This document shows positions 1-22,837 of a stretch of 32,000 bases of DNA, piece by piece. The DNA is from Candidatus Poseidoniaceae archaeon (GTDB lineage: Archaea; Thermoplasmatota; Poseidoniia; Poseidoniales; Poseidoniaceae): assembly GCA_943789275.1 (NCBI GenBank), contig CALSTM010000001.1:330001-362000 (forward strand), in the 5' to 3' direction. The notes under the pieces are model-generated. The model did not search any database and was not told the DNA's origin. It worked only from the letters and a program-made list of their open reading frames with translations. Within the stretch, counting starts at the first letter, position 1, and each line of letters begins with the position of its first letter. The position numbers were made by a program, and so were the translations under genes.

Positions 1-3000
1 GACGGTTCAGTGTTCGAAATTTCTTCGTCCGCTGAGATTATCGATCAATATCCAATTTCTGAGGATTTAGAGACCGCTCTGCGTCAATCCAATGCATCCG
101 TGACTGAATTGGCCCATGGGCCCGCAGGTGGCGGAGCAAACATGCTTTTCGTAGGTACAGACCGAGGTCTGCTCACTGCAGAAACCACAACTGCTCGTGA
201 TGAGTTCGAGCCGAGTTGGAGATTTTACTACACTCCCGAAACCACTCCCTTCCCCACTTCAATTGATGAACTCCGTTCACTCTCGTTGGGAATGGTCGCC
301 AATCCTGCTGAAGTCCGGACGATGATTCTTGATGGGCCGAATGCAGCCAATGCTCAAGTTTTATGGTTTGGTACGCCATCTGGAGTCCACATGTTGAATT
401 TGGTAGAGAACTCCATTTCTCACAGTGGCCTGTTGGAGCATCCCGGTGTTGAAGGCCGATATGTTCGCGAATACAACAACATTCACGCTTTGCATGTGAC
501 CGGTGATGAAGTCTTGGTCGGTTCAATAAAAGGCATGTGGGCTATTTCTGGAGATTATTCAGCTGTTTATGGCTTCCAAGAACAAGAAACCATTTATGGT
601 GAAATTGTGACGATACAGTCGCTGTTGATTGATGGTAACACAACAATTTTGACTGGTTCTTCTCCAGGTAAATACGCAAACATTGAGCTCATCAATCCAG
701 GTGCGAACGATTCTGACAACGACGGAATGCCCGATGGATGGGAAGTCGCTAACGGCCTTGATCCAACCGATCCCTGGGATTCTCTGTTCGATGCAGACAG
801 CGACGGCCTTGATCTTGACCAAGCCGAAGACGGATTCTTGGAACGACTTTGGACCAACCTTGATGAATACCGGTTTGTATCTCAATCTTTGAACGGCTAC
901 AACTCGACCAACCCCAAAGTTGGCGACACTGACGGTGATGGATTAGGCGATGGAAGCGAATACTTCGGGTTCTTCTATGAAACATCGAACCTTTGGTGCC
1001 ACTACACTGTCCAGATGCAGTACGTCTGCGATGATGCAGCAGGACAGGCTGCCAATGCGACCTACCTTGGATTGTCAAGCACCGACCGTGGGACTGACCC
1101 GACGAATTTCGACAGTGACGGTGACGGAATGCCTGATGGCTGGGAGATTGAGCACAGGAGATGGATTGGTTCCTCGTTCACCGGCGGCAACAATTGGACA
1201 CTGGACCCCAACCGTGCTGATGATGCAAACTGGGACGCAGACAGCGATGGACTGCCTAACCTTTGCGAGTACCAATGGTCTGTCGTTCGCAGTGCAGCAG
1301 TCGACGGCTTGTTGTATGAATCTCATGGAGAATCAGTGAACTCCAGTTTGGAATGGTTTGAAGCAGACCCGAACAACATCGATTCAGATGGAGACTCTCT
1401 ACCTGATGGCTGGGAGTCCGGGGGCTCATGCACATGGGATCCCTCTCGACAAGGCGTAAACCCGCTCAATGCTTCAGATTTGTACCAAAACCCTGATGGC
1501 GATGGATACGATATCAACCACAATGGTATACTGGAAGAAAATGAAGCATTCGTAAACTATCTCGAATTCCACGTCCGTTCGGACTTGTTCAACGGTAACC
1601 AAACCTTCACCGGCGAGTCATTGCCTAACGGTTTTTCCACTGACTTGTTCACCAACATCAGTCTCAACGGCGCCCCTGAAGCGTCATTCGGTGACCGTGC
1701 ATCAGGCTCTGTAACCGCCCTGCAATCGGCCACAAGTGTCGGCTCTTCCAATCCTTTGAGTGCCGACTCGGACGCTGATGGAATGCCAGATGGATGGGAA
1801 GTTTGGTTTGCTCGTTGGAATATTCTTGATGATGCTTGGACCCTGAATCCTTTGGATTCTTCAGACCGTTGGCAAGACGCAGATGATGATGGAATGGCGA
1901 ACTGGGAGGAATACAATTCCATCGCTCCAGAATATTCAGAAACCGACCAAAATCGTTCCTCACCTCAATGGTTTGTAACCACGGTTGGCTCGGCTTTTGC
2001 CTTGCAACAATGGCCAGGCAACACCGTTGAATTCTCGTTTGGTTCGTTCATTGAATCCGACCAAATCAACATTTCCGGGTGGACATCGGACCCGAACAAT
2101 GTCGATACAGACGGCGATGGAATGATTGACGGAATCGAACAATTGTTCACTTCATGGAACCTCAGTGCAGGCCGTTGGACGCTCAATCCTTTGGTGGCCG
2201 GTGATGGTCTGTTCGATGGTGACGCTGATGGTCTCACTGATAGCCAAGAATTTGCCATCGCTGTTGAAAATCCAGAGAACGGAGTAGAACATCCTTCAGA
2301 TGCTCCATTGTTGCATCTCGATGGTGATGTTCAACAACCGACTGAAAAGGCTCAACGTGTGTTCAATATGCTCATCACCAAAGAAACGCGCGGTAAACGC
2401 CTCCTCAATGATTTCAATGATTGGCAAGCTGGAGTTCCGCCGAATGCAATTTTATCTACGCTCTTAGGGATGTCCGATCCGACCAACCCTGATACAGATG
2501 ACGATGGTATGTACGATGGATTTGAATATTGGTTCACTGAATGGGATTTAGAAGAAAACCGTTGGAGTATGAACCCCCTTATTGACAGCGATGTAAACCT
2601 CGATACAGACGGTGACAGTTTCGACTGTGACGGTGATGGTAACATTTCAATGGACGAACGGTTTTCGAATTTACGAGAATGGGAGTCAAGAACGTACGGT
2701 AAGTACAGTGAACGGTTCTCAGTTCCACCTTCGGCAGGTCTCATCGACTTTGGCGAAGATGCGATACAAGCCTACACCGAAGAACTTGGTTTTACCCTGG
2801 CTCAGGCCCAACAAGCGTTGTACGTCGACTTTGCTTCCAAAAATCAAGAAAGCGCAGACAGAATGCTGATGATTAACGAATTTAACGAGGAGAATTTTAA
2901 CCGAACTCTACTCGGTGTTGCAGATCCCACGAACAGCGATTCTGATTCTGATGGTATCGAAGACGGTTGGGAATATTGCTATGCATTGTACGGCATGGAT

Positions 3001-4209
3001 GACCCGACAACCATCAACCATTGGGCATCCAACCCACTCAATCCTTGGGATATTCATTACGATGGAGATCATGATGGATGGTATGACCGCTCTGCGTTTG
3101 ACCAACCTGCAGAACAGGGGACTTGGTCCAGCCGAGTCTTTACTCCAGACTCAGCAATCATTCAATCAGGTTTTGGAGACCTGCCCTTCACGAACTGGAT
3201 GGAGTGGGACAACCAAACTCGGCCAGACTTGAACGATTCCGACGGCGACAGTGTATCGTTTACGACTGTGGTTTCAAATGGCCAGGTTGTGTTGCATGAA
3301 CAAGACTTCAATCTTTCAGATGGCCGTGAAGTGTTCAAGTACGGAATCAACCCGAGTGACAACGATTCCGACGGGGACATGCTTCCTGATTGGTATGAAT
3401 ATGCGAAGGCATGGAATGAAGATAACGACAACTACAGCACCTTCATGCAAATACGTGTGATGTGGATTGATGCGGCTACAGGTGGAGAATGTACGACCGA
3501 CACCAATTCATGTCTTCCACTGTCACAGCAAGGTGCCAACGGTGTGTTGTCACGTCCAGATTTGTCCTTTACTTGGTTCACAATGAATCCGGCAGATCCT
3601 CTTGATGCAAACTTTGACCCTGACCAAGACGGGAACTGGGATTGTACAGGGGCCGGTTGCGTCTATGAACCGTATACGAATTTCCAAGAGTTCTATGCAA
3701 TCACCACCCCCGACCTTTCCTCACCGAATGCAGTTCGTTTGAGTGGCCTCATTTATGATGGGGAAATCGTTCTCGAGTGGTGGCAATTGCGTGCGGCTAT
3801 GTTGAAATTTGACGCATCAGGCGCAAGCAACGAAAATTACCTCAAAATGGACAAGTCGTTCGGAAATGATATACGGTTTGCCTATGTTGTTGACGACAAA
3901 GACACCAACTTCCTTCTCTTGGATTCAGGGGATGATGAAGTTCTCTTAGCAGGTAACCGTACCGATGCATGGGATATCTACTATGTTGGCTCGCCCAATA
4001 CTGCACCTGTACGTTCGGTAGGTGAGCATGAATTCGGCTGGTACCTCCTTGATTATGACAACGATCACATTGCTGAAGGAACGGATCCGACCAATTGGGA
4101 CACTGATGGTGATTGGATGGTGGACTGGTTTGAGGTTCACGATGACGAAGAAGACGGTGTCCGTGGTGACTCTTCACCTCTCCGTTATGATTCTCGCCAA
4201 ACAGGATGA
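1..4209 (+). CDS. Giant secreted/envelope protein, 5'-truncated by the window edge. It has N-terminal beta-propeller-like blades followed by about 18-20 thrombospondin-type-3-like Ca2+-binding repeats, and no C-terminal membrane anchor.
   Basis: The frame is open from nt 1 (codons 1-9 = D G S, no stop), so the GTG at 10 is probably not the true start. The ORF is uninterrupted for 1399 aa. The motif DxDxDGxxDxxE recurs many times, e.g. NDSDNDGMPDGWE, FDSDGDGMPDGWE, DSDADGMPDGWE, DTDGDGMIDGIE, DTDDDGMYDGFE, DSDSDGIEDGWE, DNDSDGDMLPDWYE, WDTDGDWMVDWFE. N-terminal segments such as MLFVGTDRGLLTA, LWFGTPSGVHMLN and VLVGSIKGMWAIS resemble propeller blades. The protein ends ...RYDSRQTG with no hydrophobic segment. 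Confidence 0.9.
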   Translation, partial: DGSVFEISSSAEIIDQYPISEDLETALRQSNASVTELAHGPAGGGANMLFVGTDRGLLTAETTTARDEFEPSWRFYYTPETTPFPTSIDELRSLSLGMVANPAEVRTMILDGPNAANAQVLWFGTPSGVHMLNLVENSISHSGLLEHPGVEGRYVREYNNIHALHVTGDEVLVGSIKGMWAISGDYSAVYGFQEQETIYGEIVTIQSLLIDGNTTILTGSSPGKYANIELINPGANDSDNDGMPDGWEVANGLDPTDPWDSLFDADSDGLDLDQAEDGFLERLWTNLDEYRFVSQSLNGYNSTNPKVGDTDGDGLGDGSEYFGFFYETSNLWCHYTVQMQYVCDDAAGQAANATYLGLSSTDRGTDPTNFDSDGDGMPDGWEIEHRRWIGSSFTGGNNWTLDPNRADDANWDADSDGLPNLCEYQWSVVRSAAVDGLLYESHGESVNSSLEWFEADPNNIDSDGDSLPDGWESGGSCTWDPSRQGVNPLNASDLYQNPDGDGYDINHNGILEENEAFVNYLEFHVRSDLFNGNQTFTGESLPNGFSTDLFTNISLNGAPEASFGDRASGSVTALQSATSVGSSNPLSADSDADGMPDGWEVWFARWNILDDAWTLNPLDSSDRWQDADDDGMANWEEYNSIAPEYSETDQNRSSPQWFVTTVGSAFALQQWPGNTVEFSFGSFIESDQINISGWTSDPNNVDTDGDGMIDGIEQLFTSWNLSAGRWTLNPLVAGDGLFDGDADGLTDSQEFAIAVENPENGVEHPSDAPLLHLDGDVQQPTEKAQRVFNMLITKETRGKRLLNDFNDWQAGVPPNAILSTLLGMSDPTNPDTDDDGMYDGFEYWFTEWDLEENRWSMNPLIDSDVNLDTDGDSFDCDGDGNISMDERFSNLREWESRTYGKYSERFSVPPSAGLIDFGEDAIQAYTEELGFTLAQAQQALYVDFASKNQESADRMLMINEFNEENFNRTLLGVADPTNSDSDSDGIEDGWEYCYALYGMDDPTTINHWASNPLNPWDIHYDGDHDGWYDRSAFDQPAEQGTWSSRVFTPDSAIIQSGFGDLPFTNWMEWDNQTRPDLNDSDGDSVSFTTVVSNGQVVLHEQDFNLSDGREVFKYGINPSDNDSDGDMLPDWYEYAKAWNEDNDNYSTFMQIRVMWIDAATGGECTTDTNSCLPLSQQGANGVLSRPDLSFTWFTMNPADPLDANFDPDQDGNWDCTGAGCVYEPYTNFQEFYAITTPDLSSPNAVRLSGLIYDGEIVLEWWQLRAAMLKFDASGASNENYLKMDKSFGNDIRFAYVVDDKDTNFLLLDSGDDEVLLAGNRTDAWDIYYVGSPNTAPVRSVGEHEFGWYLLDYDNDHIAEGTDPTNWDTDGDWMVDWFEVHDDEEDGVRGDSSPLRYDSRQTG
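705..4160 (+). repeat. Coding-level array of TSP3-like calcium-binding repeats, degenerate at the DNA level.
   Basis: Repeated peptide motif DxDxDG(M/L)xDGxE. At the DNA level only short near-identical stretches exist, e.g. GGAATGCCnGATGGATGGGAAGT at about 724-746 and about 1780-1802. Confidence 0.85.
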
Positions 4210-4265
4210 TTCAGACCGAACCTGAAGGGGTTTAATTCAAAGGCCATAGCGCCTGTGGTGTTTCC

Positions 4266-4271
4266 GGGGAG
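4266..4271 (+). promoter_or_regulatory. Shine-Dalgarno-like site (GGGGAG) 5 nt upstream of the ATG at 4277.
   Basis: The sequence reads tttccGGGGAGcagacATG, complementary to the conserved CCUCC 3' end of archaeal 16S rRNA. Confidence 0.5.
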
Positions 4272-4276
4272 CAGAC

Positions 4277-7200
4277 ATGCAGAACGAATTTTCAAACGGG
4301 CGCGGCATCATGTTCGTACTTTTTTTCATCATGGTTCTTTCACCGATGGGGCCAATGGCGGAAGTTTTCGTAGGTTCTGCTGACGCTGCCGGCGTTTCAC
4401 GGCACATTTATGAATTCAGTGATGGTTCTACGGAACACGTGGCCTTGTACCAAGGTGCGAATCCAGACATCGGTGCTGAAATCTCATTGCCAAAGGGTGC
4501 GTTGGTGACTGAAGTTTCGATGACGCTTTCGGGCGCATCTGCTACAGGTTGGAGCCAAACCGTGACGGATGATCGTGATGAATGGATTGCAGGCGGAGCC
4601 TCCGCAACCGATTCGCGAAGCGGCGATTTGAGCCTCGACTTGGCAAACAGTTCATCCAGTTTCTTTGCACACGGTTTTGACGAAACCGTTAATCCTGCCT
4701 CTGATGCATGGCTCGATAACGGTTCATACGCTGTTCGACAACCGCACACATCGAATTCGACAGAAAGCCGATTCTCTCAGCAAGTTCTCAAAACTTCGTC
4801 GAATTTTAACAAGCAGAGTCAGGGTGCTGTACTGAAACATCATGACTGGTTGTTCATGTCCACTTGGAGTTCTTCAACCTTTCAAAACATTGTCCATCGA
4901 CTTTATCCAAACAACGCTACCAAAGAGTCTGTAATCACATTGGACCAAGCTCAGTGTACTCTTCCAAATTTGCATTCGAGTACGTACTATGCAAACTACG
5001 GATTCCGTGACTGGACAATTACCGATGATGAACGAATGTTCGCCATTTTGTCTGGATACAAATACCACTATTCGTCTTCAGCACCTACACAGTACCACCG
5101 TGTTTTAGAGATGGATATTTCTCGAGATGATGTTTGGACTTGTATCGACTCTTACGATGTTTCACCTCAATATTCAGAGTATACCGCAATCGCCTATGAT
5201 CGCACAACAGAAGATGTTTGGATTGTGCATAACGCACAACGACGGATTGTTCCTTATACATTCAGCGAAACGCCTGATGGAACTTACACCCGTGGAGATA
5301 ACATGTACTCGTATTCATCATCATCCGGTAGTGCATGGGAGTGTGGCAAGACCGGGCAACAGGTTCGCGGTTTGGAAGTGAACGAAACGACGTTCTTCAT
5401 GCGATGTCAAAAAGGCTCAACGAGCCAAGACAAGGACCAACTTGAAGCATGGACAATCTCCGGTTCTTCAACCTCCCTTGTTCCGCAATCCGGAACACGC
5501 CTCCTCTCTGCACTCGGATATGGGCTGCAATATGATGGGTCACGTTTTGTTACCGCGGACTGCGGTTACTCAACATGGTCTTCTTCGACACTTTACTACC
5601 GTGAATACGGCACAGGATGGCAATTTAAGACCACACCTGCGCCAGGTACAACCACTTGGCTTGGTCCAGTCATTAACTCAACTGAACCGGTGCTTGCTGC
5701 GAACATGCAGACCTATTGGTCCGCGGCATCAATCGGTGACCGTGTCGACTACTGGATATCAGCCGACAATGGGACGCACTGGGAGCCTGTAACTTCCAAT
5801 TCCACGATTCATTTTGATTATCCTGGTAACGAACTTGTTTGGAAAGCACAACTCATCGGCTCAACTGCAGTTTCATGGTGGGTGGATGTCGAGTATGCTA
5901 CAGAATATACCACTTCTGGCAGTTGGACTTCAACACCTCTGGTCACCGGGACCAAAGTTGGTAAAGTCCGACCCAACTGGCAAGCAGATGTTCCAGCCGG
6001 AACCTCAATACTCGTTCAGGTTTCAAACGATAACGGCTCGTCTTGGTTGCCTGCCTTGAACAATCAAGAAGTAAGTTTCCCATCGACAGAAGCAGGTGAC
6101 ACAATTCGTTACGCTATCAGCATGTCGACATCGGATTCAACACGAACGCCGCTCATTGATTTGGTCACATTGGAATACGAGGAAGGTTATCCAGACCGGC
6201 CGAAAATCGATGTTGGTAACGATTTGGTTTGGGATTGGGAATCGGTTCTTTTCTTGAATGAATCTTCTGTCGTTGCAAGTGACATGTCGCTGGTCAATGC
6301 TGAAGTAAAGTATCAACCAACACTTGTCCAAGCGTTTAACGCCCTCATTCCACAGAACGGTGAGGGCGATGTCCTCATTCCAATTGCGATTAAGGCAGCA
6401 ACCTCTGGTCGCGTTAAGATTTCGAACCTCGACATTACGTACAAGATGCAAACCAGGGCGATTGACGCATCGCTTGAGGGTGGAATCATCTCTCCAGACG
6501 GTGTCTTTAGGAACTTGCATGTTCGAATCGCACCAGGTGATGACGTTGACCGAGTGACGAGCTCTCTGGTTGCGCTCAACAATTCATACGGCGAAAACCC
6601 TGCCTTTGAATGGGAACGCGGTGACACCTGTTCGGTCGTCAGCGATGCAGATGGTATCGTCCAATTCGATGCAGCAAACTGTACTTCTGTGATGGACTCA
6701 ACTGGCCTGGTCACGATTCGGATGCCGATGTCTGTCAACTGGTCATGGGACGATGAAAGCAAATTACAAGCACTCATATCGGTTCAAGATGACTTGGGAC
6801 AAGCCGTCGTTTCATGGCAAACTGAATCCTTGGACATGGTTGTCGAAAACGATATTCAAATTGACGGACTTCGAGTCTATGAAGAAACAGGCCGTGAACT
6901 CTATTCTCAAGACTGGGTCCGTGGAGGCTACCTGATGTCGTTTACTGGCGTTATACATTTCCAAGATTCACAACTCACGCCGTTGGGTGGTCAATTTGCA
7001 CTCCGAATCTTGGGTCAAAATGTAACGTATGACGGGGATCCGATTGGCGAGCCAATCGAACTTACACGTGAACAAAATCCTGCGTTTGGCGCTTTCAATA
7101 TCACCATTACCTCACCGATGGAATCGGCACCGGGTGGAATGGTATTCTACGTCGAGGCCATTGAATTGAAGAACGGCTCAACATTCACTAATCCTGGTTA

Positions 7201-9670
7201 CAATACCATCCGTTTGGTACTCGACGGTAACTCACCGTTGGTCCTAAGTTCCACTCCAGCGGACGGTTCAGAACGCCATGCAGGCCCGCCAGCACCAGGT
7301 GGTCAAGCGCTTAGTGTCGTGGTTCAAGACTCAGTCGATCCCCCGAGCCAACTCACACTCAACTATTGGATTGGGTGCAAGGCAAGTGAAGCAATTGGTT
7401 GCAGCGACTACAATTTTGACGGATTACCGAATGCCAACGAATATGAAATGAAGGTGCTTAATTCACCGGAAACCCAAACTGGAGGTTTGAATATTTTTGA
7501 TGGACTCATCGATGACTCAATGCTTCAACACGGCCAACTGGTTTCATATTTCATTACAGGCAAAGACGCTCAAGACAACGCTATCGCAATGGGCGGTGGA
7601 CCCGTTTGCCCAGACAGCAACACCGCATGCGGCTATGTACCTGGGGAAACCGAACCTGATTGGGACAATGATTTGGGCACCTATCGTATCCGAGTTGAAT
7701 TTGAGCCAGAGCTTGATTTGGACAATTCCACCATCCTCGGCCACGACGATTCGGCTCCTTTGCACCCAGGTATTCCTTACACGGCACAAATCGTACTCTC
7801 TGACCGAAATGGATGGGAAGATATTCAGTACATTCAACTGGCGCTCGGTGGAGATTACGATGATGATGAAAGTTCGTTGTTCATCTCCTTGACTAAGGGA
7901 CATGATGGCCTACCAGTCGCAGTTATGGAGTCCGGCTCCGCAAACATAGCAGTATCGAATCTGTATTCAAGCGTGAGTTTAGATGAAACAGACAACAACC
8001 TCATCAAAATACTTGCACGTTTCCAACTCACTTGGACGTTCCCAGAAATATTTGATACCGATGGTGCCAGTCTTATCATTCCAAAAATAAAGGTGACCGA
8101 CTTACCTTGCAATGACATCGAAGTTACTCCTTGTTTCGAAACCAACGAAGGTCTTGGAAACGATGCATGGAGTCTTGATAACGACTTCAGGTTTGATACA
8201 ATGGAAGGCCATATTCGAGCAGTTGAACTGCGCGATGGAACGAACCATTACAATTCAGACTTTGATGAAACCCTCATCGGTGCTGGACAAGCTCTTCGCG
8301 TCAACGGTCGCGTACTTTTCTCAGAAGACGAAACACCAGCACCACCTGGTGCTTTTGACGTTGTTTTTGGAGATTACGACAACACTTGGACGACCTCTAC
8401 TCGCGTCGATGGGGAATTCAGTCTCGACTTGTTGATTCCATCTGTTCCATCAGGACATCTTGATTTACAACTTGGTTTGGGTGATTTACCCGGTTTTGCC
8501 ATGGATGAAACATCCACGACTCAGCGTGTTCGTTTGGCTGTTGATAGCGAACGTCCAACCATTGCCGCCATCACCTTAGATGAAGTCAATTCTGGTTCTC
8601 CACTTTCCATTGGGGCTTGTGGAGACCTACAGGTTATGCTTGAGACATTGGATGACTACGGTTTTGATCTCGATGAACCTGCAGTTGTCCACTATCGTGT
8701 ACGTGCAGGTGAAGCAGAAATCTCCCGGGGAAGTGTTCCTTTGCCGGACACAACTCCGTTTGGTGAACAATTCTTTTGGACTGGTAATCTTGATTTGACC
8801 GATGCAGGGGCAACAACCCTTTTGCCATCCTATATGGTTGATGTCTGGGTTTCAGGTTCTGATTCCGCAGGGAATCCGTTCGATACGACCGGCAATTCGA
8901 TTGACGAGCCAATTGCGTCATGGTCTTTGGCTTTGCTCGGCCCAAGTATCGACCTCAATGCTGCAACGAGCAGTTTCTCATGGGACGACCCAAGTCCAAT
9001 CGCACAACAAGCTGTGAACCTTGATTTCGAGGTCCGAAACCTTGGCGGTAAGGGAGATGTTGCTCTGGTTCTCCAACGTGCTGTTGAAGGTGGCTTTTGG
9101 GAGAATATCGCTCGAGTTGACATTGTAGCAACAGCGGGTGGTGAGTTGACAGGATCTCTACCGACAATTGCCGATGCAGATGTTGGTGACAGCATCGAGT
9201 TCCGACTTGTGGTATTGGTGGACGAGGTGGAAATGGACCGCACTTCTCTGGAACCTCTTTTCATCAAAGAACAAACCATTCGCGATGGCAAAGCGCTGGC
9301 TCAGCAAGCACAAGAAGGGACATTCAGTATTGTACTGTACATCGTCGCTCTACTTTCTCTCAGCATGGCTATGTGGCTCTTGGTGATGAACCGACGAATT
9401 CGTGAAGGAGAACTCGATCCAGGTGTTGAAGACCAAACTGAAGAAGTGCTCGAAGACCTTCAAAATTCCAAGGTGCTTCCGGCTATTGATCAAGACCTTC
9501 CGCCACCAAGTGGTTTGACATTACCTCAACCAGCGACTTCTCCTGCCCCGGCAGTTGCCTCGGCTGTAAAGGCTCCACCACCTCTACCTCCAACAGGTCT
9601 TCCTGAAGGATGGACAATGGACCAATGGAATCATTTCGGATGGCAATACGTCGAATCGATGAAGAAGTGA
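4277..9670 (+). CDS. Giant type-I membrane-anchored surface protein (1797 aa). Architecture: signal peptide, very large ectodomain with two Asp-box/BNR-like motifs and a CARDB-like domain, single TM helix, proline-rich cytoplasmic tail.
   Basis: The N-terminus MQNEFSNGRGIMFVLFFIMVLSPMGPMAEVFVGSADAAG has signal-peptide character. Asp-box-like SADNGTHW lies at 5759-5782 and SNDNGSSW at 6023-6046. VNLDFEVRNLGGKGDVALVL is a CARDB-like strand pattern. The TM is FSIVLYIVALLSLSMAMWLLVMN followed by RRIRE (about 9322-9390). The tail is rich in P (PPPSGLTLPQPATSPAPAVASAVKAPPPLPPTGLPEGW). Confidence 0.92.
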   Translation: MQNEFSNGRGIMFVLFFIMVLSPMGPMAEVFVGSADAAGVSRHIYEFSDGSTEHVALYQGANPDIGAEISLPKGALVTEVSMTLSGASATGWSQTVTDDRDEWIAGGASATDSRSGDLSLDLANSSSSFFAHGFDETVNPASDAWLDNGSYAVRQPHTSNSTESRFSQQVLKTSSNFNKQSQGAVLKHHDWLFMSTWSSSTFQNIVHRLYPNNATKESVITLDQAQCTLPNLHSSTYYANYGFRDWTITDDERMFAILSGYKYHYSSSAPTQYHRVLEMDISRDDVWTCIDSYDVSPQYSEYTAIAYDRTTEDVWIVHNAQRRIVPYTFSETPDGTYTRGDNMYSYSSSSGSAWECGKTGQQVRGLEVNETTFFMRCQKGSTSQDKDQLEAWTISGSSTSLVPQSGTRLLSALGYGLQYDGSRFVTADCGYSTWSSSTLYYREYGTGWQFKTTPAPGTTTWLGPVINSTEPVLAANMQTYWSAASIGDRVDYWISADNGTHWEPVTSNSTIHFDYPGNELVWKAQLIGSTAVSWWVDVEYATEYTTSGSWTSTPLVTGTKVGKVRPNWQADVPAGTSILVQVSNDNGSSWLPALNNQEVSFPSTEAGDTIRYAISMSTSDSTRTPLIDLVTLEYEEGYPDRPKIDVGNDLVWDWESVLFLNESSVVASDMSLVNAEVKYQPTLVQAFNALIPQNGEGDVLIPIAIKAATSGRVKISNLDITYKMQTRAIDASLEGGIISPDGVFRNLHVRIAPGDDVDRVTSSLVALNNSYGENPAFEWERGDTCSVVSDADGIVQFDAANCTSVMDSTGLVTIRMPMSVNWSWDDESKLQALISVQDDLGQAVVSWQTESLDMVVENDIQIDGLRVYEETGRELYSQDWVRGGYLMSFTGVIHFQDSQLTPLGGQFALRILGQNVTYDGDPIGEPIELTREQNPAFGAFNITITSPMESAPGGMVFYVEAIELKNGSTFTNPGYNTIRLVLDGNSPLVLSSTPADGSERHAGPPAPGGQALSVVVQDSVDPPSQLTLNYWIGCKASEAIGCSDYNFDGLPNANEYEMKVLNSPETQTGGLNIFDGLIDDSMLQHGQLVSYFITGKDAQDNAIAMGGGPVCPDSNTACGYVPGETEPDWDNDLGTYRIRVEFEPELDLDNSTILGHDDSAPLHPGIPYTAQIVLSDRNGWEDIQYIQLALGGDYDDDESSLFISLTKGHDGLPVAVMESGSANIAVSNLYSSVSLDETDNNLIKILARFQLTWTFPEIFDTDGASLIIPKIKVTDLPCNDIEVTPCFETNEGLGNDAWSLDNDFRFDTMEGHIRAVELRDGTNHYNSDFDETLIGAGQALRVNGRVLFSEDETPAPPGAFDVVFGDYDNTWTTSTRVDGEFSLDLLIPSVPSGHLDLQLGLGDLPGFAMDETSTTQRVRLAVDSERPTIAAITLDEVNSGSPLSIGACGDLQVMLETLDDYGFDLDEPAVVHYRVRAGEAEISRGSVPLPDTTPFGEQFFWTGNLDLTDAGATTLLPSYMVDVWVSGSDSAGNPFDTTGNSIDEPIASWSLALLGPSIDLNAATSSFSWDDPSPIAQQAVNLDFEVRNLGGKGDVALVLQRAVEGGFWENIARVDIVATAGGELTGSLPTIADADVGDSIEFRLVVLVDEVEMDRTSLEPLFIKEQTIRDGKALAQQAQEGTFSIVLYIVALLSLSMAMWLLVMNRRIREGELDPGVEDQTEEVLEDLQNSKVLPAIDQDLPPPSGLTLPQPATSPAPAVASAVKAPPPLPPTGLPEGWTMDQWNHFGWQYVESMKK

Positions 9671-9679
9671 GTTGCTGAC

Positions 9680-10132
9680 ATGTCCGATGGAAACAATTCA
9701 GCCGTCGCTGGAATGGTGACCTTGCAGGAACGCATGGTCAATTTAATCAATCAGCTCAATATGCCCCTCATCGAAGTCAGTCTTGTTCTCAGCAAGCATA
9801 TTGCGGGGCTGTCGCGTTCGCTCGATGAACACATAACGGCAACTCAGCAAGAGTTCCCTGAAACCGTCACTCATCCGTGGCCCATTCAGACCGGTGAGGA
9901 TGACCAATCTGGATTTCAGTTTGATTTGGAGAAAATTTTCAAGATTATCGATGAAGATCGAATGGATATCTTAGCAACGTTGGTTCGTGTTACGCTGGTG
10001 GAAATCGATGCATCATTAGCGGAAGGATTGCTCGCTTTACGACCATGGGAGGCTCTTTCACGTACGCAACTTTCCAATGCCAAAAGTCCAGGGCAATTGT
10101 TTTCACCGCTTGAAATTCCAGAGGAATGGTAA
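9680..10132 (+). CDS. Small acidic cytoplasmic protein of unknown function (150 aa), probably co-transcribed with the upstream giant gene.
   Basis: The ATG lies 9 nt after the stop of the 1797-aa gene. There is no signal peptide or TM. The composition is helical and acidic. No motif recognised. Confidence 0.7.
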   Translation: MSDGNNSAVAGMVTLQERMVNLINQLNMPLIEVSLVLSKHIAGLSRSLDEHITATQQEFPETVTHPWPIQTGEDDQSGFQFDLEKIFKIIDEDRMDILATLVRVTLVEIDASLAEGLLALRPWEALSRTQLSNAKSPGQLFSPLEIPEEW

Positions 10133-10168
10133 GCAATGGTTTGAAAATAACCAGCACCAGCGCACACC

Positions 10169-10960
10169 ATGGGCAGACTTCATCGCATCGGTATTGGCAT
10201 TCTTGTGCTGCTTCTCATGCCTGCTCTATCCGGTTGCTTAAGCGGTGACGGTATCCTTGATGTATCGGGTAACCGAGGTATTCCAGGAAGCCTAACCCTT
10301 GCCTGTTTAGATGATTCCAAATACACTTCCATGGTTATCGAAATTGATTATGAACCGGGCTACTTACCCGAATCAACTTCGACAGATATGCTCAAACAAC
10401 GTCTTGAGTCCGTGTGTGCGAAGCCGATGGGAATTAGTTTTGTGTTCACAGAAACTGATTTTTCAATCGAAGACACCTGGTCTGCAAACGATGTGCGCGA
10501 ATTAGGGGATGAGGCAAAAAGTTCCTCTCCTCAATCGGGTTCAACACTCACTTGGCAGATTCTGTTCCCAGCGGGAACATACGATGACACCAGCGTTCTT
10601 GGCGTCGCAGTCGACGCATCCACTGTGGCGATTTTCAAAGACTCCATCGATGAGGCTGAAAATATTTTCCGCCGTCCTTCTGCAGAGAAAATAGAGAACA
10701 GTGTTTTGGTTCACGAAGTTGGCCATCTTTTGGGATTGGTAAACACAGTATACACTTCACCAGTCGATCACGAAGACAGTTCACATCCAGGACATTCCAA
10801 CAACGAAGATTCGGTTATGTACTGGGCCATCGAGTCCACGAGTATTGCGAACTTCTTTGACAATGATTTACCGACGGAGTTTGACAGCGACGACCTCAAT
10901 GACTTGTCCGGTCTTGCTGATGGCAGTATCTCGTGCACTGACCAGTTATGGCGGCCTTAG
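10169..10960 (+). CDS. Secreted lipoprotein, metzincin/matrixin-like zinc metalloprotease (263 aa).
   Basis: Signal peptide with lipobox LSGC (Cys23, 10235-10237). The zinc motif VLVHEVGHLLGLVN begins at 10712 and is followed by ...NEDSVMYW, a possible Met-turn. Confidence 0.8.
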   Translation: MGRLHRIGIGILVLLLMPALSGCLSGDGILDVSGNRGIPGSLTLACLDDSKYTSMVIEIDYEPGYLPESTSTDMLKQRLESVCAKPMGISFVFTETDFSIEDTWSANDVRELGDEAKSSSPQSGSTLTWQILFPAGTYDDTSVLGVAVDASTVAIFKDSIDEAENIFRRPSAEKIENSVLVHEVGHLLGLVNTVYTSPVDHEDSSHPGHSNNEDSVMYWAIESTSIANFFDNDLPTEFDSDDLNDLSGLADGSISCTDQLWRP

Positions 10961-11295
10961 TCGTTACGTTCTGCGCTCAATTGGGTGGCTGCTCTCCATG
11001 CATCAAAGATGGAATAGAGCCACAGGCCAATCCACAGCACAATGGTCAAGGCAAGAGGTATTTGTAAGAGTGACCAGTCCATCGCTTTCCTATGTTGTCG
11101 GTTCGCATGCTGGCCGAGGAATAAGAAGGGGACTGCTGCAAGGAGTGCGGTTAACAGTGGACGTAAAGTACCCCACGCGCCAACGCCAAAAGTGAATTCT
11201 TTCCAAATTTCACGGAGAAGTCGAACAGGTCTCAAATTGGAAAATCCGTCTTCCTCCTCTTGGAGGTCCATTGGTGGTTCATCCGCCGATTCCAT
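10957..11295 (-). CDS. Small two-TM membrane protein, unknown function.
   Basis: The ORF runs 10957-11355 but its first codon is TTG. The first ATG is at 11295 (MESADEPP...), preceded by GGGGAG. Two hydrophobic helices are present (WGTLRPLLTALLAAVPFLFLG and LLQIPLALTIVLWIGLWLYSIF). The competing + strand ORF 10845-11195 has no such features. Start uncertain. Confidence 0.55.
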   Translation of the reverse strand: MESADEPPMDLQEEEDGFSNLRPVRLLREIWKEFTFGVGAWGTLRPLLTALLAAVPFLFLGQHANRQHRKAMDWSLLQIPLALTIVLWIGLWLYSIFDAWRAATQLSAERND

Positions 11296-11388
11296 GCTCC
11301 CCACGAACTGACGTGTCACTACTTGTTTGTCAAGATGACGCAAGATGCGATGCAAGAGTATGAAAAACCCTCACGCTAACGAAGCGTC

Positions 11389-12426
11389 ATGGCTCAGGTA
11401 CTGGTGACCGGATTTGAGCCGTTCGGTAACAATCAACGGAACATTTCCATGGATGTTCTTTCTTCACTTCCCAAGGCGTTCAATTGCCCAGACCCGTGGT
11501 CAATGCGAAGAGCGAGAGAATTGGAACCCATCCAAGTCACAGTTGATTCAATGGTCCTATCGGTTGATGAAAAGGGTTCCACCGCAGTATCGAATCTCCT
11601 TTTAGCGGGCCATGAGTGGGACCTTATTGTCCATTTAGGTCTGTGTGAGTCATGCACAGTGCCACGAATTGAAACCCGTGCTCAAAATACACTCTCGATG
11701 CGAATTCCGGACAACTCCGGACGCCAAGTTTTCGAACAGCCCCTATCTGCACAGGGTGATTTATTCGTTTCAGTCCCGGTTAAAACTTGGGTAAAAAACA
11801 GACTGGAGTCAGTCTGGGAACTGTCGACGGATGCAGGCACGTTCATCTGTAATGAAACTCTATACCGAACCCTCTACACTCTTTCAATGCCTGGTGTCGA
11901 CTCAAAGCCTTGCCTTTTCATTCACCTTCCTGACTATGAAGAATGTTCGTTGGAACAAGCCTCAACGCTCATTCAAGAAGTTATTCAACGCATGCTTTTC
12001 AGACCTGTTGTATCGGTTGTTGGAGGATTGGTGACTCGCAACCGCAGTTATCTTGTTGCTCGCCGTGCACCGCACGAAACACATCCTGGCAAATGGGAGT
12101 TCCCAGGAGGGAAAGTCGAGATCGAGGAAACAATGCAACAGGCTGTTGTGAGGGAGTTCAAGGAGGAACTTGGGTGGGATGTCACTGCAAAGCCTTCCGT
12201 TGGGGTTTGGCACCATGAATTAGAGATGTTTGATATTGCCTTGAACATACTACCTGTCGAGTTAAGTGATGAAGGACTTGACCTCATGGATTCAAGCTCT
12301 TGGACTGCTCATGATGCTTTGGCTTGGAGGGCTATCGATGATGATTCGCCACTCGATTGGTTAGGAAGCGATGAGCACATCGTTGATTGGATGAGGGAGA
12401 CCGGTTATCTCTCTAAATCCAAGTGA
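11389..12426 (+). CDS. pcp: Fusion protein: N-terminal pyroglutamyl peptidase I (peptidase C15, Pcp) plus C-terminal Nudix (MutT-like) hydrolase.
   Basis: The N-terminus VLVTGFEPFG is the Pcp signature. Catalytic-triad equivalents are present: E95 in PRIETRAQN (11671-11673), C154 in AGTFICNE (11848-11850) and H179 in LFIHLP (11923-11925). The C-terminal half carries a perfect Nudix box GX5EX7REUXEEXGU = GKVEIEETMQQAVVREFKEELGW (12109-12177), preceded by GKWEFPGG. Confidence 0.88.
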   Translation: MAQVLVTGFEPFGNNQRNISMDVLSSLPKAFNCPDPWSMRRARELEPIQVTVDSMVLSVDEKGSTAVSNLLLAGHEWDLIVHLGLCESCTVPRIETRAQNTLSMRIPDNSGRQVFEQPLSAQGDLFVSVPVKTWVKNRLESVWELSTDAGTFICNETLYRTLYTLSMPGVDSKPCLFIHLPDYEECSLEQASTLIQEVIQRMLFRPVVSVVGGLVTRNRSYLVARRAPHETHPGKWEFPGGKVEIEETMQQAVVREFKEELGWDVTAKPSVGVWHHELEMFDIALNILPVELSDEGLDLMDSSSWTAHDALAWRAIDDDSPLDWLGSDEHIVDWMRETGYLSKSK

Positions 12427-12928
12427 CAGCTTCACCGTCGGCACCCATTGTATTGTCATCTTGGATACTGCGCGGAACGGTATCACGACCCTTATGCCAT
12501 GTGGCTGCTTCAAGCCAATCACCTAAGTTTTGGCCTTCAAGAACGACATGGATTAGACCTCCGAGTGGACGTTCACCGGGCAAGGGGAAGGCGACTTTTC
12601 CAACAATTGCAGCCTGTCGGAGTAATGAAAACTCTGTTTTCGAACCTTCAAAAGAAGCCGTCATTGCGTCCAAAGCCGTATCGAGAATGCGCTGTTCATG
12701 CAGTAGTTTGAGAAACGTCGCAAGCGATACATTCTGCCCAGTCCAAACTGTGTCGATTGCCTGACCGAGTTGCGGATTTTCGTGGTGCGTTGGTACGGGG
12801 AACTCGGGGAATATGGTCAGCACGGCAAGTTCCACTTTTTGCGGTACATCTGCTCCTCGTAATGCTGTCTCGATACGAATCTGCAAGTTTTCATTGACGC
12901 CATTGAGGCGCAGCATTGGTTCTTGCAT
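12413..12928 (-). CDS. Hypothetical cytoplasmic protein.
   Basis: The ORF is open 12413-13045, but codon 1 is TTG and would overlap the divergent GT2 gene. The first ATG is at 12928 (MQEPMLRLNG...). No family recognised. Its 3' end overlaps the pcp-nudix gene by 14 nt. Confidence 0.55.
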   Translation of the reverse strand: MQEPMLRLNGVNENLQIRIETALRGADVPQKVELAVLTIFPEFPVPTHHENPQLGQAIDTVWTGQNVSLATFLKLLHEQRILDTALDAMTASFEGSKTEFSLLRQAAIVGKVAFPLPGERPLGGLIHVVLEGQNLGDWLEAATWHKGRDTVPRSIQDDNTMGADGEAVTWI

Positions 12929-13011
12929 GAACCGTCCAAGAACCCCCTCCACATGAACATGCCTTTCAATCGCTATTTCGGCGAACAGGTGAAAGGTGAG
13001 CGTACATACGG

Positions 13012-14049
13012 GTGGATATGAGTGGTTCAGGGCCGGTGATTGCAACCGTCCTGCCCGTGCTCAACGAAGAGAACTACATCGAAGCATGTCTTCAATCACT
13101 TATCCAACAGAGCCTACCAGCCGAGCAACATATGATTTTGGTTCTTGATGGAGGTTCGACGGATTCAACACGAGAAAAAGTCGAACGTATGATTGCTTTG
13201 AGCGTTCAATCGAAAGGACCTCGGATTGAATTGCATTCCAATACGGGCAAGTACGTTGCTCAAGCCCGTAACTTGGCGCTTAAGATTCTGCCATCATCCG
13301 TACAATTTACGGTCGAGATGATTGGTCATTCGACCGTCGACCAGGACCATCTTGAAGTCCGGTTAAGCGAGTGGAACTTGCTTGAAGAGGAGCATTCGAA
13401 ACCGTTAGGTGGGGTTGGCGTGAAAGTGTTGCCAAGTTTAGGTCGCCACGGTGCGGTCGAATCTTGGATTGAAGGATGCCTCACATCTCCTTTCGGCAGT
13501 GGTAATGGCCAATTCGATGGATTCAAATCCAGAGGGCTCACACAGGTTCCAGCGTTTGCTATGCATTCACGCCAGGCTCTTGAGTCGGTGAATGGCTGGG
13601 ATACAAACTTCATCACGAGTCAAGACAGCGATCTTTCAATGCGGTTACTCAACGCTGGTTTCACATTGGCCCGAACCCCTGCAACCCATGTGCGTATGGT
13701 CAAGCGTTCCACCCTGGGCAAATGGTGGAAGATGGGTCATCGTTACGGATTCTGGCGTGCTAAAATTTTACGTAAGCACCCGAAACGGACAAGCGTTCGA
13801 GAATTTTTACCATGGATTGGCGCTATCGTTACCCTCTCCCTCTTAGGAGCAGGTTCATCATTTACGGGAATCTTACCCGCATGTTATGGGACAGTTCTTC
13901 TTCTTGAAGGTCTACGAAGTGCACGAAAGGCAAGACGAATTTCGTTGATTTTTGGTGTCCCGTTCTGTTTGGTTTTACTTCACTCGAGTTTTTCGGTGGG
14001 TCTTGTCGATGGATTGTTTCGAAAGGGCCGTGCTTCGCAAGACCGATAA
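13012..14049 (+). CDS. Family 2 glycosyltransferase (GT-A fold) with C-terminal TM helices.
   Basis: VIATVLPVLNEENYIEACLQSLIQQS...ILVLDGGSTDSTRE is the typical GT2 N-terminus. A C-terminal hydrophobic region is present (FLPWIGAIVTLSLLGAGSSFTGILPACYGTVLLL, ISLIFGVPFCLVLLHSSF). The start is either GTG 13012 or ATG 13018. Confidence 0.82.
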   Translation: MDMSGSGPVIATVLPVLNEENYIEACLQSLIQQSLPAEQHMILVLDGGSTDSTREKVERMIALSVQSKGPRIELHSNTGKYVAQARNLALKILPSSVQFTVEMIGHSTVDQDHLEVRLSEWNLLEEEHSKPLGGVGVKVLPSLGRHGAVESWIEGCLTSPFGSGNGQFDGFKSRGLTQVPAFAMHSRQALESVNGWDTNFITSQDSDLSMRLLNAGFTLARTPATHVRMVKRSTLGKWWKMGHRYGFWRAKILRKHPKRTSVREFLPWIGAIVTLSLLGAGSSFTGILPACYGTVLLLEGLRSARKARRISLIFGVPFCLVLLHSSFSVGLVDGLFRKGRASQDR

Positions 14050-14099
14050 TGTGTTCAAGCAATGTATGCCAACTTTCTTGAGTGTAGTAGGAAAGCGCA

Positions 14100-14104
14100 A
14101 GGTG
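14100..14104 (+). promoter_or_regulatory. Shine-Dalgarno-like AGGTG, 6 nt upstream of the ATG at 14111.
   Basis: The sequence reads gcgcaAGGTGttgaccATG. Confidence 0.4.
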
Positions 14105-14110
14105 TTGACC

Positions 14111-15094
14111 ATGGTGGAGGAGCGTTCAGCAACGGCCCGTGGTATTGCGATATTGCCATTTCTGTTGATGGGTGCTGTGCATTTGACGGTCACACCTCTT
14201 CGTCAAATTTTTGACCTTGAACCACTGATTATGTATGTATGGTATGGAATTGCCGTTGTTCTTGGTATCGTTCTTTTTCGTAAAACTCGGACGGTACGTG
14301 ATTTCGAATACCATCGTTCGCGTTCCATGAAGTCCATGAAGAAAGTATACCAAGCTGAAGAAGCAGGAGTTTGGCAAACCAATGTCCAACTTGATGGTAA
14401 CCTCAGCCCTGAAGGAAAATTGGCCCTGCAAAGCCAAGTTGCCAACATTGACATGGAATCACCTGAACTTGAACTGCATGAAGATGAGAAAGTCGAAGTG
14501 GACTTACTCCTGGAGTCTGCGCAAGTACGACGGGCAAATCGTAGAGTTTCGGGAGACGAAATGTTCGGTGAAGAACAAGTACACTCAACCATTGGAGCCA
14601 AGCGTAAGGCATCACCGATGGATTCATTGCTCGATTTTATTGGGGCGATTTTCGGTCGAGGCGATGCAGATACGCGACGTGAGGAACGTCGCCAAGCAAC
14701 GCTTAGGGCAGCATCCACTGCCGCACCTGTGATTGCTCAGCGACCAGTTGCTCCAATGCGCACGAATTCAAACCAAGATGATTCTGAACTGAAAATGACC
14801 TCGGTGAGTGACGATGGGGGAATCGATTCGGTCATGTCCGAAACAGGGGCCAGTCTCCCTGATGTTCAAGCATCTGCAATGCAGATGGATACAACTTACG
14901 CTTGGGATTCACCACCACCGGTATCCAATCAAGGCAGCATCGAGGAAATGGCCATGATGAATACCGCACAGTTCGCTACTGCACCACAGACCAGTGTTCC
15001 TGCACCACCGCCAGCAGGTAACCTCTGCAAAGGCTGCAGTTCGTCGATACCTGTCGGCGAACCGTTCTGTCTTCATTGCGGTCTTGATGCTTGA
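14111..15094 (+). CDS. Membrane protein with two N-terminal TM helices, a long low-complexity cytoplasmic region and a C-terminal zinc ribbon.
   Basis: The ORF is open from 13952, but that would overlap the GT2 gene. ATG 14111 has an SD-like AGGTG upstream; ATG 14066 is an alternative. TMs are GIAILPFLLMGAVHLTV and LIMYVWYGIAVVLGIVLF. The C-terminus CKGCSSSIPVGEPFCLHCG (15025-15079) is CxxC-x11-CxxC. Confidence 0.72.
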   Translation: MVEERSATARGIAILPFLLMGAVHLTVTPLRQIFDLEPLIMYVWYGIAVVLGIVLFRKTRTVRDFEYHRSRSMKSMKKVYQAEEAGVWQTNVQLDGNLSPEGKLALQSQVANIDMESPELELHEDEKVEVDLLLESAQVRRANRRVSGDEMFGEEQVHSTIGAKRKASPMDSLLDFIGAIFGRGDADTRREERRQATLRAASTAAPVIAQRPVAPMRTNSNQDDSELKMTSVSDDGGIDSVMSETGASLPDVQASAMQMDTTYAWDSPPPVSNQGSIEEMAMMNTAQFATAPQTSVPAPPPAGNLCKGCSSSIPVGEPFCLHCGLDA

Positions 15095-15151
15095 GGCGAT
15101 GGATTTTGTGCGTGATGTTGAAAGAGGACTTCACTACCCCTAGGCTTGTTC

Positions 15152-15157
15152 GGTGAG
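15152..15157 (+). promoter_or_regulatory. Shine-Dalgarno-like GGTGAG, 3 nt upstream of the dnaJ ATG.
   Basis: The sequence reads ttcGGTGAGcatATG. The same GGTGAGnnnATG geometry occurs at 21462-21473. Confidence 0.5.
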
Positions 15158-15160
15158 CAT

Positions 15161-16285: not shown

Positions 16286-16328
16286 TGAAGCAATCATTTC
16301 CTCCTCTTAATCCACGTCTTTCGACGGC

Positions 16329-16345
16329 ATAAATATCGTATTAAT
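16329..16345 (+). promoter_or_regulatory. AT-rich TATA-box-like elements (ATAAATAT, TATTAAT) upstream of the ORF starting at 16376.
   Basis: This is the only strongly AT-rich stretch in the 90-nt intergenic region. It lies 31-47 nt upstream of the ATG, which is compatible with an archaeal TATA box at about -26 and a short leader. Confidence 0.3.
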
Positions 16346-16375
16346 CTTCATAACCTCTGGACATTTGGTCGTAGC

Positions 16376-16678
16376 ATGTCCGAGAAGCGTGTACTGCGCA
16401 AGATGAAGAAACTCGCTTCTCGAATTCATGACAAAATGGAAGCAGTTCGTGATGTCATGGAAGATTTGGAAATCGAGTTCGAGTTACTCCAAAATCAGAT
16501 TACAAAACTTGAATCCAAGAAGGGCTTGACTCGTGAAGAAAAAATCTTTGAGAGTAAGTCGACCTCACGCGCCGAAAATGACTCCATGGACGAATCAGAG
16601 TCGGATAAAGAAGAAGATGACGATGATCTGCTCGACTTGGAGAACACTTCCGTTGTAACCGTCCGTCCAAAGTTTTGA
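16376..16678 (+). CDS. Small coiled-coil protein with an acidic C-terminal tail (100 aa), unknown function.
   Basis: ATG start with a plausible upstream promoter. A heptad-like helical N-terminal half is followed by ESESDKEEDDDDLLDLE. No family recognised. Confidence 0.6.
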   Translation: MSEKRVLRKMKKLASRIHDKMEAVRDVMEDLEIEFELLQNQITKLESKKGLTREEKIFESKSTSRAENDSMDESESDKEEDDDDLLDLENTSVVTVRPKF

Positions 16679-16730
16679 GCAGCATATGCGATTTGAGCGT
16701 AATGCCGCTTTCATCTCGAAGGTGATTTCA

Positions 16731-18956: not shown

Positions 18957-19019
18957 GTTGCCGTCCATGCATGTGCCTGCCAAGTATGCTCTTTGAACTT
19001 AGGCCCTTCTTCGTGTCCA

Positions 19020-22770: not shown

Positions 22771-22828
22771 TACGGTTTGTTCACTAAAAGGCGCTTCTCT
22801 TATGTGCCATGCGCGCTGGGGTGATATT

Positions 22829-22833
22829 GGTGA
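22829..22833 (+). promoter_or_regulatory. Shine-Dalgarno-like GGTGA, 4 nt upstream of the ATG at 22838.
   Basis: The sequence reads attGGTGAagttATG. This supports 22838 as the start rather than 22745. Confidence 0.45.
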
Positions 22834-22837
22834 AGTT

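Follow-up and report, generated by a model that had tools for sequence, protein, structure and literature searches.

Here, we analyzed a 32,000-nt stretch of DNA (the window) from a Poseidoniaceae archaeon (Marine Group II (MGII), MGIIa), corresponding to positions 330,001 to 362,000 of contig CALSTM010000001.1 (assembly GCA_943789275.1), and focused on a cluster of four genes at its 5' end, named g1 to g4. This cluster is a Poseidoniales-specific, order-wide envelope locus, whose invariant part is the pair g1 and g3 and whose other members, g2 and g4, are lineage-dependent accessories. All four genes lie on the plus strand: g1 (1(10)-4209) is an open reading frame (ORF) that is open at the 5' edge of the window and has its C-terminal 1402 codons inside it, and it is followed by g2 (4277-9670; 1797 amino acids (aa)), g3 (9680-10132; 150 aa) and g4 (10169-10960; 263 aa), each called as an ORF with its translation. 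The ORF coordinates confirmed that the genes are co-directional and separated by gaps of 67, 9 and 36 nt, as described in an initial annotation of this DNA that had proposed a dedicated surface module of all four genes. Our analysis agreed with that proposal in that the locus is surface-related, linked and undescribed, but not in the choice of the core genes.

The major evidence came from a comparison of gene architectures. Our Poseidoniaceae sample comprised six contigs found via three g3 homologues together with 80 species-representative genome loci, and the order g1-g2-g3-g4 was kept in every locus with enough sequence. Outside this family, the same four-gene order was observed in L088 and L089. 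The order g1-g2-g3 without g4 was found in L087, L090 and L092 (no g4 within ±10 kb by tblastn), and L093 and L094, which came from independent samples, had neither g2 nor g4: a full-length orthologue of g1, 42% identical over residues 1-1916, was followed by g3, and the two genes overlap by 4 nt in L093 and are 33 nt apart in L094. When metagenomes were scanned starting from this g1-g3 lineage, 80 loci were returned, in which g1 was located directly before g3 in all cases with enough upstream sequence (62/62), with g2 within 10 kb in none of them, and g4 was lacking in all cases with enough downstream sequence (68/68). Across the reduced clade, the g1-g3 junction ranged from a 4-nt overlap to ~38 nt and contained no remnant of g2. 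Because g1 and g3 persist without g2 or g4 in divergent lineages, the invariant unit is this pair and not the quartet. In a neighbour-joining tree of DnaJ, the three architectures were nested in the order 1234 -> 123 -> 13.

These observations bear directly on the model of the initial annotation, an obligate four-part surface module in which g2 tethers or displays g1, g3 docks on the cytoplasmic tail of g2, and g4 matures or releases the complex. Several features would fit such a module, such as the invariant and tightly spaced quartet of all Poseidoniaceae loci, a strongly conserved motif at the end of the g2 tail, a g2-g3 gap of typically 3-11 nt, the simultaneous loss in L087 of this tail motif and of the C-terminal motif of g3, and the predicted surface tethering and protease fold of g4. 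However, g4 was missing from three lineages and both g2 and g4 from L093, L094 and all 62 classifiable metagenome loci, and g1 and g3 stayed coupled throughout. Thus g2 cannot be a necessary tether of g1, which persists without it; g3 is not defined by docking on the g2 tail, since both g3 and its C-terminal motif are retained where g2 is absent; and the protease is not a required part, given that g4 is dispensable. In addition, a conserved promoter-like element precedes each of g2 and g4, nothing in our data pointed to contact between g1 and g2, and the two giants are not paralogues. It is therefore unlikely, and distinctly so, that the four genes form an obligate module.

A different question is whether the genes work together at all. 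The same Poseidoniaceae loci also keep x5m, C15-NUDIX, x7m, GT2, a zinc-ribbon gene and DnaJ downstream of the quartet, and ~10 kb of housekeeping genes on this side, comprising C15-NUDIX, GT2, DnaJ, DUF5591/TGT and rpS15, were equally collinear across the order with every architecture. Because of this equal collinearity, the synteny of the quartet alone is no evidence of a module. The co-occurrence of the quartet in related genomes, which had been put forward as a check, was found within Poseidoniaceae but was not specific to the four genes, and it broke down elsewhere by the absence of g4 or of both g2 and g4. It could be argued that the four genes are neighbours by collinear descent whose products act independently; the equally syntenic housekeeping genes, the promoter-like elements before g2 and g4, and the loss of g2 and g4 independently of g1 and g3 would all agree with this. 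However, g3 abuts or overlaps the preceding giant gene in every architecture, even after the clean loss of the 5.4-kb g2, and occurs nowhere else among 1.84 billion proteins, and for all four products a relation to the envelope, or coupling to an envelope gene, is predicted, and the constraint on them is similarly high. A locus without any functional module seems to us quite improbable.

The degree of conservation was also informative. Median identities across loci were 69% for g1, 65% for g2, 62% for g3 and 63% for g4, and those of the neighbours were 69% for DnaJ, 57% for DUF5591, 54% for GT2 and 41% for C15-NUDIX. Among 60 loci, the conservation of g1 equalled or exceeded that of GT2 in 59 and that of DnaJ in 48. 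Judging from these sequence comparisons, such constraint on g1 is unlike that of diversifying adhesins or polymorphic toxins. Adhesins are usually variable, patchy and fast-evolving. The possibility that the locus encodes an adhesin for particles or cells, with g1 (with or without g2) binding particles or phytoplankton in a Ca2+-dependent manner and g3 and g4 as ancillary genes, should nevertheless be considered, since g1 has TSP3-type repeats and resembles, weakly and in part, the adhesion lipoprotein CglD of Myxococcus (38 bits). In the same direction, thrombospondin genes have been reported to be widespread in Poseidoniales and were read as adhesion factors (Rinke et al., 2019; PMC6461757). 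Several properties of the locus do not match: it is single-copy, occupies a fixed position beside housekeeping genes, is present in every lineage sampled and is conserved like DnaJ over its full length, and a strictly coupled cytoplasmic partner would be left unaccounted for. We thus regard an adhesin locus as rather unlikely. In the literature that we searched, neither the cluster nor any of g2, g3 and g4 nor the cell envelope of MGII was described, and only the general remark on thrombospondin genes was found; the supplement of a published mdRNA-Seq start-site study of deep-Mediterranean fosmids mentioned no thrombospondin or surface genes.

The full-length g1 protein could be examined on a 627-kb contig (L091; ENA ERZ10646650 contig_12130) that carries all window proteins at 100% identity. 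It has 1917 aa (L091:4180-9933), the N-terminal 515 of which are encoded upstream of the window and include a signal peptide, MRRSLTTLLTTLAVVASLLFMSQFPAVSS. No hydrophobic segment or transmembrane (TM) helix follows the signal peptide and there is no C-terminal anchor. The protein contains 27 [DN]x[DN]xDG Ca2+-loop motifs, 11 of which extend to the full form ending in DxxE, and it is rich in Asp (11.8%) and in N-x-S/T sequons (29). The statement of the initial annotation that g1 is anchor-less was thus upheld; on the other hand, g1 does not consist entirely of TSP3-like repeats, as its DxDxDG motifs are 30-100 aa apart and residues ~340-750 are motif-free. The Pfam family TSP3_bac (PF18884), whose gathering threshold is 25 bits, matched the window copy with 24.5 bits and the full-length protein with 23.1 bits, both just under the cutoff; among g1 orthologues, L089 (45.6 bits) and L088 (30.3 bits) passed, L087 scored 16.8 bits and L090 had no match. 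The signal region and the last ~45 residues were nearly invariant across clades.

Several candidate relationships of g1 were tried and rejected. Membership in the CglD family (NCBIfam NF033765) was ruled out, because the match was partial, confined to the repeat region and reached 38.4 bits against an equivalog cutoff of 400. Sequence and profile searches of g1 against all PDB chains gave chance-level matches only and no homologue of known structure. Paralogy between g1 and g2 was rejected as well, the best local alignment being 28% identity over 146 aa (E 0.014). Export of g1 by the Tat pathway, with g3 as a TorD-like chaperone, was suggested by a conserved MRR start, but the subsequent residues depart from the RRx-hydrophobic-hydrophobic pattern and none of the ~170 fetched loci has a TatA-like gene; for these two reasons the Tat/TorD idea is kept here as an analogy only.

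The second member of the invariant pair, g3, was described in the initial annotation as acidic and cytoplasmic, in agreement with its composition (D+E 15.3%, K+R 6.7%) and its lack of any hydrophobic segment. Its invariant features are a DxxRMDIL core and a C-terminal motif, PGQLFSP..(I/L)PE(E/D)(W/F), which is kept as PG(Q/G)LFSP...(D/E)(D/E)(F/W) in the clade without g2. An AlphaFold2 model based on a 41-sequence alignment is an all-helical bundle (pLDDT 80.7, pTM 0.72), and a search with this model retrieved nothing significant from PDB (best E = 3) or BFVD (best E = 0.7). The protein belongs to no Pfam or NCBIfam family and had no sequence relative of known structure in our searches. An exhaustive profile search of 1.84 billion proteins found only 130 clusters at 50% identity, mostly fragments, and a profile built from distant members of full length retrieved 819 proteins, including one named Thalassarchaeaceae; all matches with a named source were assigned to Poseidoniales, Poseidoniaceae, Thalassarchaeaceae or plain Euryarchaeota. 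On this evidence, the g3 family occurs only in the order Poseidoniales. A giant gene, either g2 or, where g2 is absent, g1, was located directly upstream of g3 in every locus with enough upstream sequence.

Two unusual forms of g3 were noticed. In L088 (ENA ERZ26167216 ctg495766), a 3.0-Mb contig with a GC content of 68%, both unusual for MGII, g3 has a Pro/Ala-rich N-terminal extension of ~90 aa, and the g2 tail is divergent. The 153-aa database protein P0300 has a TatA/E-like N-terminus (…GGSEWMIIIFVAVVLVLGTGKLPGAAKKMGK…) and continues as the C-terminal half of g3; given the same absence of TatA-like genes from the fetched loci, a chimera or a rare rearrangement may explain this protein.

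The layout of the pair also resembles that of a polymorphic toxin (g1) with its immunity protein (g3), in that the gene of a giant secreted repeat protein is tightly coupled to that of a small helical protein of the cytoplasm. However, the C-terminal 45 aa of g1 are nearly invariant across clades instead of polymorphic, g3 is highly conserved, and the locus occurs universally and at a fixed position. Moreover, in most lineages g3 follows g2, which ends in a TM helix and a tail and not in a toxin domain, and Pfam and NCBIfam searches of g1 and g2 detected no toxin domains. A toxin-immunity pair is thus highly improbable.

Examination of the junctions further distinguished the pair from the accessory genes. 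The initial annotation had recognized no promoter between the genes, a statement that is not supported in view of a conserved, promoter-like TT[CG]AAA element before g2 and g4. In the window, these promoter-like (TATA-like) elements are TTCAAA at 4236..4241 (+) in the g1-g2 gap, 41 nt before the ATG of g2, and TTGAAA at 10141..10146 (+) in the g3-g4 gap, 28 nt before the ATG of g4. Such sites were present 15-50 nt upstream of 6 of the 20 gene starts of the window (~1 expected, P = 3e-4), the others being upstream of the genes starting at 12928(-), 15146, 21471 and 30291(-). Across loci, the element was located 28-29 nt before the ATG of g4 in 61 of 89 cases and anywhere in the g3-g4 gap in 67 of 89; it was present in the g1-g2 gap in 40 of 74 loci, with 34 of the 74 having it at 30 or 40-43 nt before the ATG of g2. 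No site at a fixed distance was seen before g3. The observed spacing fits an archaeal TATA box that drives leaderless or short-leader mRNAs. It is probable from these patterns that TT[CG]AAA is a TATA-like promoter element of MGII archaea and that g4 has its own promoter, and g2 and g4 may be transcribed separately. No oligo-T runs were found in the gaps.

Median gaps across loci were 67 nt for g1-g2 and 37 nt for g3-g4, and the g2-g3 junction was typically 3-11 nt, with 3, 8, 9, 10, 11 and 27 nt as well as overlaps observed. Only the junction between the giant gene and g3 looks translationally coupled, the g2-g3 gap leaving no room for a promoter. Since g2 and g3 of the window are in the same frame and separated by one TGA and 9 nt, readthrough of the g2 stop codon into g3 was considered; it was rejected because gap lengths and frames vary among loci.

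With regard to the accessory genes, g2 has the layout of a type I membrane giant, which confirmed the signal peptide, huge ectodomain, single TM helix and proline-rich tail of the initial annotation. A hydrophobic signal segment at aa 9-33 forms part of a signal peptide spanning aa 1-~38 and is followed by an ectodomain of ~1640 aa with no robust domain match, a predicted TM helix (aa 1680-1705; nt 9314-9391, +) and, directly after it, a proline-rich cytoplasmic tail (nt 9392-9667, +). Orthologues were 38-95% identical. Neither Pfam, NCBIfam nor PDB gave a sequence or profile match to g2, and scanning eight orthologues singly produced only faint BNR/Asp-box, MG4, CARDB and EF-hand matches. At the end of the tail, orthologues share a conserved motif, GLPEGWTMDQWNHFGWQY (9596..9649, +), whose consensus PPLPPTGLPxGWxMEQWxHYGWQY is common to Poseidoniaceae and L089, degenerate in L088 and L090 and absent from L087. 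In L090, which lacks g4, the tail (~9600-9988) has an extra ~90 aa with an EF-hand-like loop, FFDSDGNRYLTAEELE, that replaces the compact GW-motif end. Two database proteins, P0328 and P0370, fuse the g2 tail to g3 through frameshifts; these fusions are probably sequencing or assembly errors, and they confirm the g2-g3 adjacency on other contigs.

The remaining gene, g4, encodes a predicted lipoprotein. Its signal ends with ...LLLMPALSGC, containing the lipobox LSGC (Cys23 at nt 10235-10237), and G22 and C23 were invariant in 36/36 and 13/13 aligned homologues, suggesting that the protein is lipid-anchored at the surface. The zinc motif HEVGHLLGL (nt 10712-10738, +) was found as HE(V/I/F/A)GHLLGLVN across aligned homologues. 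The lipobox and the HExxHxxG motif named in the initial annotation were thus both invariant. In metzincins, HExxHxxGxxH/D is expected; at the third-ligand site g4 has an invariant Asn192, so that it departs from this pattern, and the invariant H201 or H209 might replace the third zinc ligand. Further downstream, the invariant S215-V216-M217-Y218-W219 is Met-turn-like, in a region (around residues 200-230) where model confidence was low. A Foldseek search of PDB with the AlphaFold2 model (pLDDT 79.1, pTM 0.76) retrieved fragilysin (E 1e-4), archaemetzincin 2x7m (TMt 0.65), adamalysins and matrix metalloproteinases, with probabilities of ~1.0 and E values from 1e-4 to 1e-2. As modelled, the catalytic domain of g4 has a metzincin fold. 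No Pfam or NCBIfam threshold was reached by g4, and even a profile gave no sequence match in PDB. The initial annotation had reasoned that its proposal would suffer if g3 and g4 belonged to well-characterized, unrelated families; this was not the case, g3 having no relative in Pfam, NCBIfam, PDB or BFVD and g4 falling in an uncharacterized family with a metzincin fold.

Based on these results, we propose that the locus specifies a constitutive, Ca2+-stabilized envelope structure to which g2 and g4 are accessory, and that g3 is a biogenesis factor produced along with it in the cytoplasm. We consider this interpretation plausible although somewhat short of probable. In this scheme, g1 would be exported by the Sec pathway and would fold with seawater Ca2+ into a rigid, constitutive component of a surface coat (S-layer-like); it would be N-glycosylatable and would offer ~25 Ca2+ sites of the EF-hand/TSP3 type. 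Where present, g2 would be a membrane-anchored partner that is co-assembled with g1. The g3 protein would be made in stoichiometry with the giant or giants, hold or escort the very long pre-proteins in the cytoplasm and, in lineages with g2, possibly also touch the g2 tail, and g4 would optionally trim or remodel the coat. A more far-reaching version is that g1 (together with g2 in Poseidoniaceae) is the principal S-layer-type envelope protein of MGII, built on a scaffold of Ca2+-loaded TSP3 repeats, that g3 represents a new class of biogenesis factors for giant exported archaeal proteins, and that 1234 -> 123 -> 13 reflects a stepwise simplification of the envelope during MGII diversification; in this strong form, the proposal is unlikely.

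Several points weigh against the proposed envelope structure. We describe it as a coat, or as S-layer-like, from architecture and conservation, because neither g1 nor g2 has a homologue of known structure or a model, and our literature search found no expression, localisation or abundance data for the locus. We can only infer the biogenesis role of g3, whose fold matched nothing and for which neither fold nor sequence searches recovered a chaperone family. In L087, the tail motif of g2 and the C-terminal motif of g3 are lost together, which would fit a g2-g3 contact where both proteins exist. Since all ~20 kb of this neighbourhood keep their gene order throughout Poseidoniales, part of the linkage is possibly inherited gene order. 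With respect to the reduced architectures, the absence of g2 from the g1-g3 clade was judged within ±10 kb, and g2 may be located elsewhere in these genomes; similarly, we infer the stepwise loss of g4 and then g2 from a tree that is based on a single gene and midpoint-rooted.

The boundaries of the locus and its surroundings were well defined. In L091, the g1 start is located 240 nt downstream of a divergent Lactamase_B gene, which makes g1 the first gene of the block. At the other end, x5m (10957..11355, -), a convergent gene for a small membrane protein with two TM helices, was found at the same position in all lineages examined; because its stop overlaps the stop of g4, g4 is the last gene, and x5m marks the 3' boundary of the co-directional block. 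A ~6-kb insertion between g4 and x5m was seen in two Poseidoniaceae loci, L048 (~6300-12500) and L073 (~10500-16750), with the quartet uninterrupted. The genes downstream encode a C15 pyroglutamyl-peptidase/NUDIX fusion, a GT2 glycosyltransferase, a zinc-ribbon protein, DnaJ and a DUF5591/TGT-like protein, and further downstream rpS15 (with the archaeal/eukaryotic N-domain), GluRS, RNase HII and PheRS-beta. Those homologues of g3 and g4 whose source is given bear the labels Poseidoniaceae, Poseidoniales or Poseidonia, in line with an MGIIa origin of the window. The fusion of C15 pyroglutamyl peptidase and NUDIX hydrolase (11389-12426, +) keeps its position throughout Poseidoniales, with only the C15 part called in L093. 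The listed ORFs for GT2 (13012-14049) and the zinc-ribbon protein (13952-15094) overlap by ~100 nt through far-upstream GTG/TTG starts; the gene calls of L091 place the zinc-ribbon start later (327 aa), and listed ORF starts are thus unreliable as real starts. Three further large ORFs of the window, at 16731-18983 (-), 22745-24901 (+) and 27871-30291 (-) (750, 718 and 806 aa), have N-terminal signal-like and C-terminal hydrophobic segments and no Pfam match; the neighbourhood is rich in uncharacterized envelope proteins. Neither Rfam families nor tandem repeats were detected in the region.

Archaea of Marine Group II are among the most abundant in the surface ocean and are uncultured. A single-copy, order-wide locus for exported proteins of ~1900 aa that are conserved like DnaJ provides a concrete candidate for an MGII envelope component. 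If this candidate is true, its products could be targeted with antibodies or used to sort or enrich cells, and they would be candidate virus receptors. The architectures 1234, 123 and 13 could serve as a marker to distinguish clades. As a taxon-restricted protein with no detectable fold relative and coupled to giants, g3 offers a tractable entry to the way in which archaea handle very large secretory substrates. Should the locus be only an adhesin cluster, it would still be a well-delimited, albeit ordinary, case.

Comparison with known systems revealed partial similarities to several of them. The Pseudomonas LapA-LapG-LapD system consists of a giant Ca2+-binding surface adhesin, a dedicated protease and a trans-membrane signalling component, a concept that matches the proposal of the initial annotation. 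However, g4 has a predicted metzincin fold, is not a LapG-type cysteine protease and is dispensable, and Pfam and NCBIfam scans found no RTX repeats, type I secretion system genes or cyclic di-GMP receptor nearby. With metzincins, g4 shares the modelled fold and the invariant HExxHxxG, downstream of which a Met-turn-like SVMYW is located; it differs in scoring below all family thresholds, in the Asn at the third-ligand site and in its lipobox. The many DxDxDGxxDxxE Ca2+ loops of the extracellular g1 resemble those of TSP3 proteins (TSP3_bac, CglD and thrombospondin/COMP). However, g1 has neither a VWA domain nor a lipobox; its motifs are interspersed with long unique segments, thrombospondin/COMP chains were not recovered by its sequence search, and these proteins offer no parallel to the fixed, order-wide locus or to the g3 partner.

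Dedicated cytoplasmic chaperones encoded beside their exported substrate include TorD/DmsD, FliT and the Lap proteins of the type VII secretion system. By analogy, g3 could be compared with them, being small, acidic, predicted to be all-helical and cytoplasmic, and encoded right after a very large exported protein, but it shows no significant similarity to any of them (FliT and LapA3/4 were retrieved only at E 6-9 and probability 0.02-0.03).

In the two-component slaA-slaB S-layer operon of Sulfolobales, a large, anchor-less secreted protein is encoded ahead of a partner that has an N-terminal signal peptide and is anchored in the membrane by a C-terminal TM helix. The differences from this operon are considerable: searches detected no sequence similarity of g1 or g2 to any solved chain, g2 is ~4 times as long as SlaB and its cytoplasmic tail is conserved, TSP3-type Ca2+ sites form the framework of g1, the core includes a coupled protein of the cytoplasm (g3), and the anchored partner is dispensable in a large clade. 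On the other hand, both have an anchor-less large subunit (g1) in tandem with a TM-anchored subunit (g2), both have many N-glycosylation sequons, and g1 and g2 are likewise candidates for a constitutive envelope structure. Among archaeal loci for giant surface proteins, the locus represents a so far undescribed variant.

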